Virus record (IMG/VR): IMGVR_UViG_3300050821_002228
Length of the DNA: 26,875 nt
Source of the DNA: a virus
Strand: one strand, 5' to 3'
This document shows positions 4,732 to 21,965 of the stretch, in pieces. The position numbers and the translations under genes are program-made. Positions within the stretch are counted from its first letter, which is position 1. Every line of letters starts with the position of its first letter. The notes beneath the pieces were generated by a model, which saw only the letters and a list, made by a program, of their open reading frames with translations, was not told the origin of the DNA and did no database searches.

Positions 4732-4763
4732 CCAGCGGCCGGGGGTACGGTCCCGGCCGCTGG
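4732..4763 (-). terminator. intergenic GC hairpin
   Basis: CCAGCGGCCGGG-N8-CCCGGCCGCTGG, 12-bp perfect arms after the stop at 4768. Confidence 0.6.
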
Positions 4764-11245: not shown

Positions 11246-11275
11246 CGAACCCCCGGCATCGTCGCCGGGGGTTCG
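11246..11275. terminator. terminator between convergent blocks
   Basis: CGAACCCCCGGC-N6-GCCGGGGGTTCG. Confidence 0.75.
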
Positions 11276-14111: not shown

Positions 14112-14145
14112 TAGGGCGTCCCGGCCCCGTTTCCGGGACGCCCTA
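14112..14145 (-). terminator. intergenic GC hairpin
   Basis: TAGGGCGTCCCGG-N8-CCGGGACGCCCTA, 13-bp perfect arms. Confidence 0.65.
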
Positions 14146-14856: not shown

Positions 14857-14895
14857 ATCGTAAGCCCATACCCTAAACGGTGTCTAGGGTATGGG
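14857..14895 (-). promoter_or_regulatory. promoter TAGACA-N18-TACGAT embedded in a 31-bp palindrome
   Basis: CCCATACCCTAAAC-GGT-GTCTAGGGTATGGG (14865-14895); -10 at 14857-14862. Confidence 0.75.
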
Positions 14896-14915: not shown

Positions 14916-15209
14916 CTACGGCAACGCCAGCTCATCCGTCAGCCGTTTCACCATGGCCTCCGACGGATACAACGCCCGGATGACCGCCGCCGACGTCGGC
15001 ATGAAGTCACCGGCCATCAACGACCCAACCACGAACCGCACCGCCTCCAACGTCGCCTCAGCACGCTCCGCCCGGTCCGTCAGCCCCTCGATGATCTGGT
15101 TGGTGGTCCACTGCACGTCACGCGCCGACTGCTCGTACAGCTTGGCCATGAAGATCCCGAAGTCCTTGCGGATCGTGATGGTCTCGCCGCCGTCGGCGTC
15201 CCCGCTCAT
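14916..15209 (-). CDS. hypothetical protein (97 aa)
   Basis: ATGA overlap; LTDRAERAEATL coiled-coil motif. Confidence 0.72.
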   Translation of the reverse strand: MSGDADGGETITIRKDFGIFMAKLYEQSARDVQWTTNQIIEGLTDRAERAEATLEAVRFVVGSLMAGDFMPTSAAVIRALYPSEAMVKRLTDELALP

Positions 15210-15649
15210 CCGTTCGGCCACGGGGCGTCGTTGACGATGGCCATGACCATCGCCTCCAGATCCTCCATGGTGTTGCTGGAGTTGAACATGTCGTTCGCCT
15301 GCCACGACGTAATCCCGAACAGCGCCGCCGCCGCGTACTCGATACCGACCGCGTTCACAGCCTTGCCGTTGTTGCCGCTGGTCTCGAACGTGTGGTCGAT
15401 CACCATCGCCTCCCGGCGGATGGCCTCCGGCAGCGACGACACCACGACGTCGTCCGCGATGATGCTCTGTTGCGCCGTCAGGTTGTAGATGAGGTCACCC
15501 CCGGCGAGGAGAACCCCGTGCCCGGCGATGCAGGCCGTAGTCCGGCACACGCTCTTCCGCCCCCACGTCCGCTGGTCCCACATCGACGGGTTGGCCTTGA
15601 TCAGGTAGAACGTGCCGAGCAGGTGCCACTTCTTCTGTTGCGCGTCCAT
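15206..15649 (-). CDS. phage hypothetical protein
   Basis: CCGGAGGAAACAC-ATG; WDQRTW...CRTTACIAGH motif. Confidence 0.8.
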   Translation of the reverse strand: MDAQQKKWHLLGTFYLIKANPSMWDQRTWGRKSVCRTTACIAGHGVLLAGGDLIYNLTAQQSIIADDVVVSSLPEAIRREAMVIDHTFETSGNNGKAVNAVGIEYAAAALFGITSWQANDMFNSSNTMEDLEAMVMAIVNDAPWPNG

Positions 15650-15676
15650 GTGTTTCCTCCGGTCGTTGATGTGTGG

Positions 15677-15759
15677 GACACGCGCGGCAGCCACCTACGC
15701 TGCTGGAACAGCGGAACCCGTGGGACAAGCAGAACCCCGGGATCACTGCCGCGCGTGCC
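15677..15759 (-). ncRNA. unassigned structured RNA (three-way junction)
   Basis: A 14-bp closing helix GGCACGCGCGGCAG/CTGCCGCGCGTGTC (one G-U) encloses two hairpins. Confidence 0.5.
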
Positions 15760-15760
15760 G

Positions 15761-15833
15761 TGCCCCCAGCCGGATTCGAACCGGCATCTCGACGGTTTTA
15801 AGCCGTCAGCCTCTACCGTTGGGCTATGGGGGC
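15761..15833 (-). tRNA. tRNA-Leu(UAA), short variable loop, CCA not encoded
   Basis: GCCCCCA/TGGGGGC-A acceptor, GACGG-CTTAAAA-CCGTC anticodon arm, GCCGG-TTCGAAT-CCGGC T arm. Confidence 0.9.
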
Positions 15834-15861
15834 CCTACCCCGGCCGTAGCCGGGGGCTGTG

Positions 15862-16182
15862 CTAGTCGTCCATGTCCAGCCCGTAGGCCAAACACACCTG
15901 CCGCACGTACCACGCCTCCTGCGTGTCGCTGTCCCATCCGGCCTGCGGGCCGCATTCCACCGACCGTTCCCCGTAGGCACGCATGGCGGCGCACACGGCG
16001 CCACGGACCTCCCGGGGGTTGTAGTCGTTACCGGAACCCAACCGGCAGTGTTCGAAGCTGTTGGCCGGGCGCTGACGGGTGGCGGCCTCGTCGAAGTAGA
16101 TCTCGCCGCCGTCCCGCATCAGCGCCGCCAACTGGTGCCGGTTGAACGTGGTGCGGACACGGATGGTCGCTTGGGTGGCCAT
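15862..16182 (-). CDS. hypothetical protein (106 aa)
   Basis: GGAGG RBS, TGATG coupling; MATQATIRVRTTF... Confidence 0.75.
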   Translation of the reverse strand: MATQATIRVRTTFNRHQLAALMRDGGEIYFDEAATRQRPANSFEHCRLGSGNDYNPREVRGAVCAAMRAYGERSVECGPQAGWDSDTQEAWYVRQVCLAYGLDMDD

Positions 16183-16478
16183 CAGTCCGCCTCCAGCACA
16201 CCGGCGATCAGGTCCCGCAGCGCAATCACGATGGCCTTCTGCATCTTCGTGATCTGGTCGCCGTCGGGTTCCGTCCGCGACTCGTCGAACCCGAGGGAGT
16301 AGCCGTTGATGCTGTGTTCCACCTGCCACCCGGTGATGGGCGTGGACGCGTCGTCCGTCGTCTCATGCTCCGGCCACACGTCCGCCGTCAACACCAGCGG
16401 CGTACGCACCTGGAACCCGCCGCTGCGGGCGTCCGGCGCCGTCACCGGCGCGTAGGGCTTCGTCTGGTTGTCGGTCAT
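16182..16478 (-). CDS. hypothetical protein (98 aa)
   Basis: CCGGAGGACGAC-ATG; MTDNQTKPY... Confidence 0.78.
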   Translation of the reverse strand: MTDNQTKPYAPVTAPDARSGGFQVRTPLVLTADVWPEHETTDDASTPITGWQVEHSINGYSLGFDESRTEPDGDQITKMQKAIVIALRDLIAGVLEAD

Positions 16479-16515
16479 GTCGTCCTCCGGTCTCGGCCCC
16501 CGGTTAGGGCCGCTG

Positions 16516-16588
16516 TGCTTCCGACGGGATTCGAACCCGCGTCTTCCCGGTAGGTAACCCGGTCCTCTGTCCACTGAGGTACGGAAGC
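16516..16588 (-). tRNA. atypical tRNA: Arg-like body, nominal anticodon ACC
   Basis: GCTTCCG/CGGAAGC-A, D arm CCTC-AGTGGACA-GAGG, T arm GCGGG-TTCGAAT-CCCGT; the anticodon arm CCGGG-TTACCTA-CCGGG has a G-G mismatch and U37. Confidence 0.75.
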
Positions 16589-16622
16589 GGTGCCCCGGCG
16601 TCGGCGCGCCGGGGCGGTGACG

Positions 16623-17084
16623 CTAGTTGTTGGTGCAGCCGGACCCGGCCGGGGGCGGCGTGACCACAGCCTCCACCTGGAGGATGTTCGGCCACATGGA
16701 CAGTAGCCCGTTGCGGTAGCCGCGCACCTTCAGCTTGTACACGCCGCCGGGGCACAGGGAGCCGGTGACGTCGGAGCTGTTGAACTTCCCGGCCAACAGG
16801 GAGTCCGAGTTTTTGAACGTGCCGCCGGACGTGTACACCAGGTTGGTGCAGGACGAGCCGTTGGTGCAGGTCTGGCCGGTCTTGTTGATCTTGACGGTGA
16901 CCTCGCGGGTGGAGTTCATGTACATGGTCCACACCAGCGCGATCACAACAGCGATCGCGACCACGACGGCAGCCGCGCCGCCCCACAACTTGATCATCCG
17001 GTTGCGGTCGCGCCGTGCCTGCAACTGACGCGCCTGCAACCGCCGGGCCTCGTACCCGCTGCGGTCTTCACCTGCGTAGTTCAT
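16623..17084 (-). CDS. single-TM secreted-domain protein (DUF1523-like)
   Basis: TM helix, then VTVKINKT...LVYT..GTFKNSDSLLAGKFNSSD...YKLKVRGYR....WPNI. Confidence 0.78.
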   Translation of the reverse strand: MNYAGEDRSGYEARRLQARQLQARRDRNRMIKLWGGAAAVVVAIAVVIALVWTMYMNSTREVTVKINKTGQTCTNGSSCTNLVYTSGGTFKNSDSLLAGKFNSSDVTGSLCPGGVYKLKVRGYRNGLLSMWPNILQVEAVVTPPPAGSGCTNN

Positions 17085-17126
17085 ATCTCCTCCGGTTCAC
17101 GACGGGTCACGGTGACCCGTCGTCGG

Positions 17127-17200
17127 TACCGCTAGCAGGGCTCGAACCCGCGACCTAGCCATTTATAAAGTGGCTGCTCTACCAACTGAGCTATAGCGGC
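17127..17200 (-). tRNA. atypical tRNA: nominal anticodon UAU (Ile), Thr-like acceptor stem
   Basis: GCCGCTA/TAGCGGT-A, GCTC-AGTTGGTA-GAGC, GCCAC-TTTATAA-ATGGC (C31-A39 mismatch), 6-nt variable region, GCGGG-TTCGAGC-CCTGC. Confidence 0.8.
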
Positions 17201-17227
17201 ATGTCCCCGGCGGACCGGGGGTTGGTG

Positions 17228-17545
17228 CTAGTTCTTGCGGGCGTACTGGGCTAGGGCGCCGTCGAGGGCCTCCCCGAACGGGGTGACCCACTCGGCGGGG
17301 AAGTCCCGGAGGATGTTCTGGAGGAGTTCGGTGAACCCCCACTCGTCGCGGCTGTGCGGCGCCGACATGGCGTCGGCGAACGGCTCCAGCTTGTCCTCCA
17401 GGAACGCGAGTGCGGCGCGGCCGGTGGTGGCGTAGTCGGCGTTGCTGGCGATGCGCCGCCAGAAGTCCTCGCTGTCGAACGCCCACGGGTCTTCGGTGAA
17501 GAAACCCACGATGGCGTCCATGACGGGGTTGGTGATGCTACTCAT
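17228..17545 (-). CDS. hypothetical protein
   Basis: GGAGGAG RBS, ATGA overlap, 105 aa. Confidence 0.78.
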   Translation of the reverse strand: MSSITNPVMDAIVGFFTEDPWAFDSEDFWRRIASNADYATTGRAALAFLEDKLEPFADAMSAPHSRDEWGFTELLQNILRDFPAEWVTPFGEALDGALAQYARKN

Positions 17546-17730
17546 TTGTTGATCTCCTCCACGATCATTCGGCGGGTGTTGCGCTGCTCCCGGCGTTTAA
17601 CGACCCGCTTTGATGTCTGCTTGGTGGACGGGCCGCCAAACCAGAAACACCGGCAGCCCCGGGCCGCGTCCTGACACGCCGGGCCACGGTTTGGTGCGTG
17701 ACGTCCCATCATGGGCGCGCCGTTCCGCAT
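17542..17730 (-). CDS. small basic protein (62 aa)
   Basis: GAGGAGG RBS; MRNGAPMMGRH...GCRC...KRVVKRREQRN. Confidence 0.65.
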   Translation of the reverse strand: MRNGAPMMGRHAPNRGPACQDAARGCRCFWFGGPSTKQTSKRVVKRREQRNTRRMIVEEINK

Positions 17731-17761
17731 ATATCGCCTCCTCACATCGGGTGGTGCTGCG

Positions 17762-17829
17762 CTGTGCCGCCGGGATTCGAACCCGGGTCGCCCCCGTCGG
17801 GGCCGTGTAGCCGTCACACGCTCGGCACA
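17762..17829 (-). ncRNA. tRNA-like RNA lacking an anticodon loop
   Basis: TGTGCCG/CGGCACA acceptor, CGTGT-GACGGCT-ACACG D-like arm, GCCCC-GACG-GGGGC tetraloop arm, CCGGG-TTCGAAT-CCCGG T arm. Confidence 0.75.
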
Positions 17830-17855
17830 TCAAGCCGGTTGCCCGGCCGATGGTT

Positions 17856-18083
17856 CTAGCTGGTCCACGCGCCGTCGTATCCGAACAGCTTCGCGACCCG
17901 GTCCGCCTGCGCCTGCATCAGGTCGTGTATCTCGTTGACGTCGGCGACGCTCAACAGTTCCCGTTCCGCGTCGGACATGTTTTCCTGCCAGTATCCGAGG
18001 ACTTTGGAAATGCCGTCCAACAGCATGTCCTGTGCCCACTCCTTCTTGTCGGTGCGGGTCTTGAGGTCTTTGATCTCCTGCAT
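17856..18083 (-). CDS. hypothetical protein (75 aa)
   Basis: CCGGAGG RBS; first gene after the promoter at 18122-18152. Confidence 0.8.
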   Translation of the reverse strand: MQEIKDLKTRTDKKEWAQDMLLDGISKVLGYWQENMSDAERELLSVADVNEIHDLMQAQADRVAKLFGYDGAWTS

Positions 18084-18121
18084 GTCGGGCGCCTCCGGGT
18101 TCGTGTTGTTCCGATGCGGGG

Positions 18122-18152
18122 ATCGTATCGCAGGGCCCTAAACGGTGTCTAG
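18122..18152 (-). promoter_or_regulatory. promoter TAGACA-N18-TACGAT with palindromic box
   Basis: Box CTAAACGGTGTCTAG (18138-18152) is identical to that at 14873-14887. Confidence 0.75.
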
Positions 18153-18612: not shown

Positions 18613-18640
18613 GGTGCGCCGCCCAGACAGGCGGCGCACC
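18613..18640 (-). terminator. intergenic GC hairpin
   Basis: GGTGCGCCGCC-N6-GGCGGCGCACC. Confidence 0.6.
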
Positions 18641-19747: not shown

Positions 19748-19855
19748 TCTGCCCCCGTTTCGGCGAACGGGGGCAGAGAGACGCGCTATGTGGTTCTCCT
19801 CCGGGTCACGGGCGCGCACGAACCCCCCGGCACCATCGGTGTCCGGGGGGTTCGT
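19748..19855. terminator. two hairpins between convergent genes
   Basis: TCTGCCCCCGTT..AACGGGGGCAGA (19748-19777) and ACGAACCCCCCGG..CCGGGGGGTTCGT (19818-19855). Confidence 0.7.
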
Positions 19856-20668: not shown

Positions 20669-20698
20669 ATCGTACCCGACACCCTGAACACCGTAAAC
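20669..20698 (-). promoter_or_regulatory. promoter TTTACG-N17-TACGAT with palindromic box
   Basis: Box CTGAACACCGTAAAC at 20684-20698, directly upstream of the HTH gene. Confidence 0.65.
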
Positions 20699-20726
20699 CC
20701 CCCGGACGTGATGTCCGGGGGGTTTA
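20694..20726 (-). terminator. terminator after the DUF932 gene
   Basis: TAAACCCCCCGGAC-N5-GTCCGGGGGGTTTA. Confidence 0.7.
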
Positions 20727-21928: not shown

Positions 21929-21965
21929 GCGCAGGGCCCCTAGACGGTGCCTAGGGGCCCTGCGC
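21929..21965. repeat. 37-bp palindrome centred on an operator-like box
   Basis: GCGCAGGGCCCCTAG-ACGGTGC-CTAGGGGCCCTGCGC. Confidence 0.7.

Follow-up and report, generated by a model that had tools for sequence, protein, structure and literature searches.

Mitochondrial transfer RNAs (tRNAs) reportedly punctuate polycistronic transcripts, and their excision is said to release the messenger RNAs (mRNAs; the Ojala model). In the eukaryotic nucleus, ribonuclease (RNase) P makes the 3′ ends of the MALAT1 and MEN-beta RNAs by cutting at mascRNA, a tRNA-like fold with a poor anticodon arm, and the end so made is protected by a triple helix just upstream of the cut. The t-elements of plant mitochondria are described as non-translational tRNA-like structures at the 5′ or 3′ termini of mRNAs, where RNase P and RNase Z are proposed to recognise them as signals (Forner et al. 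2007, PMC1920247). In E. coli, RNase P separates the secG mRNA from the tRNA leuU, leaving an unstructured tail of 14 nucleotides (nt), and the freed mRNA is described as having a half-life of <30 s and as decaying mainly through polynucleotide phosphorylase (PNPase) as well as poly(A) polymerase (PMC2241853). Here we analyse a 26,875-nt stretch of viral DNA (IMG/VR record IMGVR_UViG_3300050821_002228; hereafter the window), in which an operon on the minus strand carries four tRNAs or tRNA-like elements between its small protein genes, each with a hairpin a few nucleotides upstream.

We favour the reading, to which we give a probability of about 0.5, that this is a co-transcribed mRNA–tRNA early operon that RNase P and RNase Z would cut, the resulting mRNA ends being capped by hairpins. 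A first-pass annotation of the sequence had interpreted the operon as a case of tRNA punctuation; the layout, the promoter-like motif, the placement of the hairpins and a pattern of drift in a relative partly support that interpretation, whereas its claims of three damaged anticodon arms and of a cassette-specific hairpin had to be revised.

The likeness to the described systems is partial. As in secG–leuU, the tRNA stands directly behind an open reading frame (ORF) with no promoter of its own, and one RNase P cut would give both the 5′ end of the tRNA and the 3′ end of the mRNA. The secG–leuU spacer is given as 14 unstructured nt, whereas the window has a stable hairpin 3–4 nt from the predicted cut, four repeats of the arrangement and two elements that look non-decoding. 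The rapid decay of the uncapped secG mRNA offers a reason for a 3′ hairpin here. Of the described cases in which tRNA-like folds that do not decode are proposed as RNase P and RNase Z marks, plant t-elements come nearest; they are organellar and their transcript ends have been mapped, whereas the window holds a phage operon known from sequence, with true tRNAs mixed in and dedicated flanking hairpins. With mitochondrial punctuation the operon shares tRNAs interspersed between the cistrons of what is probably one polycistron. In animal mitochondria, however, tRNAs abut the cistrons almost without spacer and mRNA ends are polyadenylated, whereas the spacers of the window contain ribosome-binding sites and predicted protective hairpins, and a tRNA stands only at every first or second gene boundary. 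The first of the four elements (element 1) scored 19.6 bits against the Rfam model of mascRNA (RF01684; gathering score, 42.5) and is therefore not homologous to it. A literature search returned no account of tRNA punctuation in a phage in the portions of text that it covered. Co-transcripts of mRNA and tRNA are a known kind, as are t-elements, and we place the operon with them.

Four tRNA-shaped elements divide a probable operon

Eight small genes lie on the minus strand between two copies of a promoter-like motif (18151-18122 and 14886-14857), forming a unit of ~3.2 kb between the copies that we call P2 and P3, and the tRNA or tRNA-like dividers split them into blocks of 1, 2, 1, 2 and 2. 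The 5′ ends of the four elements are at 17829, 17200, 16588 and 15833, at intervals of 629, 612 and 755 nt, which bears out the proposed alternation of tRNA folds with blocks of one or two genes every 610–760 nt. The ORF ahead of each element ends in TAG (17856, 17228, 16623 and 15862; 4/4, as claimed), and the upstream hairpin follows 6–8 nt beyond the stop at all four sites. Checked against the sequence, ARAGORN, Rfam and RNAfold, the coordinates that the first-pass annotation had given for stops, hairpins and tRNA 5′ ends all hold. The four cassettes comprise the following features (stem lengths in base pairs, bp).

17834..17847, minus strand: upstream hairpin 1, a 5-bp GC stem with a GCAA loop, 4 nt ahead of element 1
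17762..17829, minus strand: element 1, a truncated tRNA in which the 7-bp acceptor stem is perfect, the T arm is canonical and the D loop contains GG
17205..17220, minus strand: upstream hairpin 2, 6 bp (CCCCGG / CCGGGG) with a UCCG loop, 4 nt ahead of tRNA-Ile(UAU)
17127..17200, minus strand: tRNA-Ile(UAU), canonical save for a C31-A39 mismatch (found by ARAGORN; Rfam, 57.3 bits)
17099..17123, minus strand: downstream hairpin 2, 11 bp, beginning 3 nt past the discriminator and followed by a ribosome-binding site (−21.7 kcal/mol, z −3.1)
16592..16615, minus strand: upstream hairpin 3, a 9-bp stem and a 6-nt loop, 3 nt ahead of the 'Gly(ACC)' element
16516..16588, minus strand: tRNA-shaped 'Gly(ACC)' element, with a canonical body and an aberrant anticodon arm (Rfam, 55 bits)
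16494..16512, minus strand: downstream hairpin 3, 7 bp, beginning 3 nt past the discriminator and followed by a ribosome-binding site
15838..15855, minus strand: upstream hairpin 4, a 7-bp stem and a UACG loop, 4 nt ahead of tRNA(UAA)
15761..15833, minus strand: tRNA(UAA), 'Leu' by its anticodon only and of class I size (Rfam, 60.9 bits)
15678..15758, minus strand: downstream structure 4, multibranched and closed by a 14–15-bp helix, beginning 2 nt past the discriminator (−51.5 kcal/mol, z −3.0)

The stops of the other 19 minus-strand ORFs are TAG in 4, TAA in 1 and TGA in 14, many of the TGA codons overlapping the next start; TAG before the tRNA elements is partly expected. Suppressor tRNAs for these TAG stops were considered and dropped, as none of the three tRNAs reported by ARAGORN carries a CUA anticodon.

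The promoter-like or operator-like motif (TAGACAnCGTTTAGG, 9 nt, TACGAT) has three copies on the minus strand (23181-23152, 18151-18122 and 14886-14857), and as many matches as observed arose in 0/100 shuffles. Its 118 loci in IMG/VR include none that shares a window protein and none with a GC content >0.6, and are therefore chance matches. Two copies bound the operon.

18122..18151, minus strand: promoter-like site P2 (TAGACA, 18-nt spacer, TACGAT), one of three near-identical copies
14857..14895, minus strand: promoter-like site P3, embedded in an inverted repeat of 14 bp (14865-14895), where the unit probably ends

The inverted repeat around P3 might serve as the terminus of the upstream unit as well. 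We found no promoter-like site in the vicinity of the four tRNA elements, and the 3–4 nt between GC hairpin and tRNA leave no space for one there; a single promoter ahead of the block had been proposed, and one promoter-like motif is what we find. None of the upstream hairpins is followed by a U-tract, and a terminator scan reports nothing at these sites, so they are not canonical terminators; rho-independent termination at them was dropped because no T run follows any of the four. With one promoter-like motif, none at the tRNAs and hairpins that lack U-tracts, the whole block is likely to be co-transcribed.

Hairpins flank the predicted cut sites

In RNAfold minimum-energy folds of 108–143-nt contexts, both the hairpins and the cloverleaves are retained. 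Three of the upstream hairpins have 4-nt loops (GCAA, UCCG and UACG), which belong to the extra-stable GNRA or UNCG classes. The placement of the hairpins was compared with a census of simple hairpins on the minus strand, 108 of which are non-overlapping at ≤ −9 kcal/mol. A simple hairpin of ≤ −10 kcal/mol ends 3–4 nt upstream of 0.61% of minus-strand positions, but of 4/4 elements (P ~1.4e-9). On the downstream side the same census flags 2/4 elements (P ~5e-4). The remaining structure on that side, which is multibranched, was detected by RNAfold only, and 0/200 shuffles were equally stable. The claim that another helix begins soon after the discriminator in three of the four cassettes is thus correct, at distances of 3, 3 and 2 nt.

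Overall, the flanking helices (−10.9 to −51.5 kcal/mol) are predicted to lie 2–4 nt from the presumed cut sites. The leaders behind tRNAs 2–4 are structured from nt 0–3 (−21.7, −14.7 and −51.5 kcal/mol), whereas the promoter-proximal leaders are unstructured in 3/3 cases (z 0.0, 0.0 and −0.7). Processed 5′-monophosphate ends need a cap, whereas primary triphosphate ends do not, and the difference between the two sets of modelled leaders fits that need.

These positions suggest how processing might proceed. Host RNase P would cut the single transcript at every tRNA 5′ end, leaving an upstream mRNA that ends in a hairpin plus 3–4 nt, an overhang that would be too short for PNPase or RNase R to land on. 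None of the four elements encodes CCA, for which reason RNase Z would be expected to cut behind the discriminator; its product would be a 5′-monophosphate mRNA starting 2–3 nt ahead of a helix, and a 5′ helix this near the end would make a poor substrate for RNase J and for 5′-end-dependent RNase E. The GC hairpins would in this way cap the new mRNA ends against exonucleases. The tRNAs may stand where they do for the sake of punctuation, or the hairpins may be present since excising a tRNA would otherwise lay the mRNAs bare.

If such cuts occur, phages would be using host tRNA-processing enzymes as built-in mRNA processing, and the position of a hairpin relative to the cut would tune the lifetime of each message. 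The same reading would give a purpose to many odd non-decoding phage 'tRNAs', and rapid decay after release by RNase P, of the kind described for secG–leuU, would be the selective pressure that explains the hairpins. The design could potentially be reused to set expression ratios in synthetic actinobacterial operons.

Two of the elements appear unable to decode

ARAGORN reports three tRNAs on the minus strand, Leu(UAA) at 15760-15833, Gly(ACC) at 16515-16588 and Ile(UAU) at 17125-17200, which score 60.9, 55.0 and 57.3 bits, respectively, against the Rfam tRNA model (RF00005; gathering score, 29). Element 1 was missed by ARAGORN and by wider Rfam scans. Searched alone, it gives an end-to-end match to the Rfam tRNA model at 31.3 bits (gathering score, 29), and 4 nt stand for the 9 anticodon-loop positions of the model; RNAfold predicts four perfect helices, the anticodon stem among them having 5 bp and its loop 4 nt. 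Exact copies of the T-loop motif are present in the window at the four sites only, and further tRNA-like elements in the window were dropped as candidates on this ground.

We judged decoding by a 5-bp anticodon stem, a 7-nt loop, U33 and a purine at position 37. tRNA(UAA) has all of these, and tRNA-Ile(UAU) has them apart from one C-A mismatch. Element 1 fails with its 4-nt loop; the 'Gly(ACC)' element fails with an arm that has either a G29-G41 mismatch or a 4-bp stem and an 8-nt loop, together with A34 and U37. It is therefore likely that only these two cannot decode. Damaged anticodon arms in three of the four had been claimed, which overstates the case: two are aberrant, tRNA(UAA) is canonical and tRNA-Ile(UAU) has the one mismatch.

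Because two of the elements look non-decoding, we argue from their predicted folds that at least some are kept for shape. Taking this further, it is a tentative proposal, to which we would give somewhat less than even odds, that tRNA-shaped RNAs, one without an anticodon loop and one with a freely drifting loop, may serve as dedicated RNase P and RNase Z marks that are paired with capping hairpins and yield individually stabilised mRNAs. In a bacterial virus, such marks would correspond to the tRNA punctuation of mitochondria and to plant t-elements, an analogy that we likewise offer as possible rather than probable.

The two canonical-looking tRNAs have relatives in known phages: tRNA-Ile(UAU) shares 79% identity with the tRNA-Lys(UUU) that cluster L mycobacteriophages carry, and tRNA(UAA) is homologous to the tRNA-Leu(UAA) of mycobacteriophage Kykar, which is also of class I size. 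Both UAA-anticodon tRNAs (window 15761-15833; Kykar, locus L228 3001-3075) are 73–75 nt long and, unlike bacterial tRNA-Leu, have no long variable arm; given their class I size, the amino acid that they carry is uncertain.

In one relative, an anticodon loop differs within an otherwise unchanged cassette

Database searches yielded no close relative of the operon. In the phage collection, megablast found none and blastn gave tRNA-level matches only, while tblastn returned nothing above 60% identity for the DUF932 protein of the window, nothing for its phrog_889 protein and only distant matches for a 153-amino-acid (aa) protein of the operon. In IMG/VR, the 153-aa protein had no match, DUF932 proteins reached at most 45% identity without shared operon genes, and neither element 1 nor the body of the 'Gly' tRNA, searched as patterns, had a match. 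GTDB genomes gave ≤39% identity, and JGI metagenomes had no match by protein or by a 30-nt tRNA pattern. The comparison was therefore made with short contigs from six other runs (five from soil, one from freshwater) that contain 5–16% of the window words; these are DNA contigs, and many parts of the window are without cover.

One strain-level relative, X3, spans a cassette. Its coding pieces differ from the window at 12/244 and 13/204 bases and, in a third piece, by 1 substitution (26/498 in total), and 8/22 of the listed coding differences change an amino acid; the third piece also has a 9-nt in-frame insertion at 17063, near the start of the phrog_301 gene. Over 16469-16620, a 152-nt piece of X3 departs from the window at 3 bases, tRNA positions 31, 36 and 37, every one of which belongs to the anticodon loop of the 'Gly' element; the changes turn ACC into ACA. 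Another piece (17085-17186) shows no difference in its non-coding part. Altogether, 3/8 loop bases differ and 0/236 cassette bases outside the loop do so (Fisher exact test: cassette versus coding, P 5e-5; loop versus rest of cassette, P 2e-5); the body of the 'Gly' element is unchanged at 0/65 bases, as are upstream hairpin 3 and downstream hairpin 3. Conservation of the cassette with drift in the anticodon arm had been set beforehand as a check, and it is what X3, the sole relative that spans a cassette, displays. Pseudogene-type decay across all arms, the outcome that the annotation had itself named as speaking against it, was not seen in X3. Two further relatives, X4 and X5, match the window exactly in their pieces over element 1 and over tRNA(UAA), hairpins included; upstream hairpin 4 is among the parts that X5 shares.

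The same drift could be read as an arms race, in which the aberrant elements are released as decoys or sponges for host anticodon nucleases or tRNA-binding defence proteins. Loop change at 3/8 bases between strains that are ~95% identical, with the body invariant, would suit this explanation, and tRNA-targeting defences are described in actinobacteria (PMC10264068). Three changes in eight bases, however, are not significantly above a rough neutral expectation of ~1, estimated from synonymous changes; element 1 lacks an anticodon loop that could act as bait, the window yielded no identifiable nuclease or partner gene, and the idea has no specific support. We consider it highly unlikely.

A second relative, X2, bears on a different alternative. 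In its one 207-nt contig (depth 2.5), position 17550 is joined to 17211 through 22 unlike letters, and gene 3 of the operon is missing. On the minus strand, these 22 letters supply a TAG in frame, a spacer of 5 nt, a 5′ stem arm with the same six bases as in the window and a 4-nt loop that differs from it; beyond them, the hairpin's 3′ arm, the 4-nt gap and the start of the tRNA are unchanged. The hairpin–tRNA units might accordingly be recombination boundaries at which small accessory genes are swapped, with RNA processing as a side effect: a gene present in the window is missing in X2 with the joint exactly at the hairpin, and the region consists only of small genes to which no function is assigned. 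This is a single polymorphism in a single contig, though, and the 22 unlike letters at the joint mean that it is no simple deletion between repeats. Since recombination would also leave the 2–4-nt spacings and the downstream helices unexplained, we regard it as very improbable.

An alternative with ordinary tRNAs and gene-end hairpins

Several observations weigh against processing by RNase P and RNase Z at capped sites. Hairpins with a CCCCGG core stand behind at least five other genes that have no tRNA, among them longer ones at 20726-20694, 14145-14112, 11275-11246 and 4763-4732, so the hairpin type is not specific to the cassette; the CCGG-core hairpin, put forward as a cassette mark, is a general gene-end hairpin of this phage. 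No downstream hairpin was found after element 1. A helix 3–4 nt from the cut could hinder contact of the RNase P protein with the leader and slow the enzyme. Internal promoters of another type may exist within the block. The comparative evidence comes from single contigs at a depth of 2–4 and from near-identical strains. Both tRNA-Ile(UAU) and tRNA(UAA) belong to known actinophage tRNA families, and as ordinary actinophage tRNAs their presence requires no processing role; they may serve only in decoding or in resistance to host tRNA nucleases of the kind treated in PMC10264068. Elsewhere, too, the pairing of hairpin and tRNA is not a rule. In a survey of 108 other loci from IMG/VR and GTDB, found through DUF932, 121 tRNAs were called, 82 of them isolated; a hairpin lay ≤8 nt upstream of 6/82 isolated tRNAs, the same as the 6.0% seen at 2,460 random positions. 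Without an excess of upstream hairpins at the 82 tRNAs, the layout is not a general phage rule.

Much of this would follow if the elements were ordinary scattered tRNAs that serve rare A/U-ending codons or replace host tRNAs destroyed by nucleases, the hairpins being the usual gene-end structures (weak terminators or attenuators), the spacing a result of compaction, and element 1 and the 'Gly' element decaying pseudogenes. The shared hairpin type and the mycobacteriophage homologues of the two canonical-looking tRNAs agree with that account. tRNA-Ile(UAU) is, moreover, frequent in phage contigs, one deletion of 3–5 nt would be enough to produce element 1, and anticodon-loop changes are proposed to confer nuclease resistance (PMC10264068). 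Yet spacings of 3–4 nt in 4/4 cassettes and of 2–3 nt in 3/4 are too regular for compaction alone. Decay should strike all arms, whereas in X3 it spares the body of the 'Gly' element (0/65) and alters its loop (3/8), and all four helices of element 1 are perfect. The codons that the tRNAs would serve are rare in the window, with 2 TTA and 2 ATA among the 4,931 codons of its 25 ORFs (late genes are outside the window). The tRNAs also lack promoters of their own, and would hence be processed from mRNA even so. On balance, we regard this explanation as rather unlikely and prefer the capped, tRNA-punctuated operon.

Hairpins and dispersed tRNAs in other phages

A generic pattern of hairpin, 4 nt and tRNA occurs in ~140 IMG/VR stretches, and 120/120 of those examined belong to low-GC families. 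About 100 low-GC contigs (within loci L229-L348, for example L229 2976-3091) have TTGCTAA, a CCCGG/CCGGG hairpin, 4 nt and a tRNA(CAU), and in L323 the same TTGCTAA-hairpin leader stands ahead of a tRNA-Ile(UAU). In L229, the one locus examined for this, no ORF of ≥40 aa ends ahead of the hairpin, so the layout differs from that of the window.

In many low-GC contigs of a further set from IMG/VR, found through DUF932 (L119-L198, for example L179 7600-9200), single tRNAs are dispersed on the flanks of the DUF932 gene. What stands ahead of many of them is not a hairpin but a conserved motif, CCTGGGCATG ... AAACTGCCC, which looks like a phage promoter ahead of each tRNA. Mycobacterium phage LeBron (L227 3976-4078), a single case, offers a cultured analogue of the window: its tRNA-Lys(UUU), a homologue of the tRNA-Ile(UAU) here at 79% identity, lies 2 nt behind an interrupted 9-bp GC stem, the loop of which contains the TAG stop of gp115.

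Genes of the operon and its surroundings

The genes between P2 and P3 are the following.

17856..18083, minus strand: gene 1, 75 aa, TAG stop, without a family match
17542..17730, minus strand: gene 2, 62 aa, basic, with a TGA stop that overlaps the gene 3 ATG
17228..17545, minus strand: gene 3, 105 aa, TAG stop; missing in the strain-level relative X2
16623..17084, minus strand: gene 4, 153 aa, phrog_301 'secreted protein', TAG stop
16182..16478, minus strand: gene 5, 98 aa, with a TGA stop that overlaps the gene 6 ATG
15862..16182, minus strand: gene 6, 106 aa, TAG stop
15206..15649, minus strand: gene 7, 147 aa, phrog_889, with a TGA stop that overlaps the gene 8 ATG
14916..15209, minus strand: gene 8, 97 aa, TAG stop; the final gene ahead of promoter-like site P3

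The GC content of the window is 62–71%, and the minus strand carries most of the genes. Its proteins include a RecT-like protein, a PD-(D/E)XK exonuclease, the DUF932 protein and a ParB–methyltransferase fusion; many small proteins match phage families only. Sampled window words were all present in one run only, a soil metagenome. In our reading, the window comes from an uncultured soil actinophage, of which it forms the early or accessory arm.

Long hairpins of 12–17 bp stand behind genes without a tRNA on the minus strand (21929-21965, 20694-20726, 19748-19777, 18613-18640, 14112-14145, 11246-11275, 4732-4763 and 2960-2990), with energies of −23 to −37 kcal/mol. The CCCCGG core is present in several of these and absent from the printed stems of 21929-21965 and 18613-18640; some have short A/U flanks and may be terminators.

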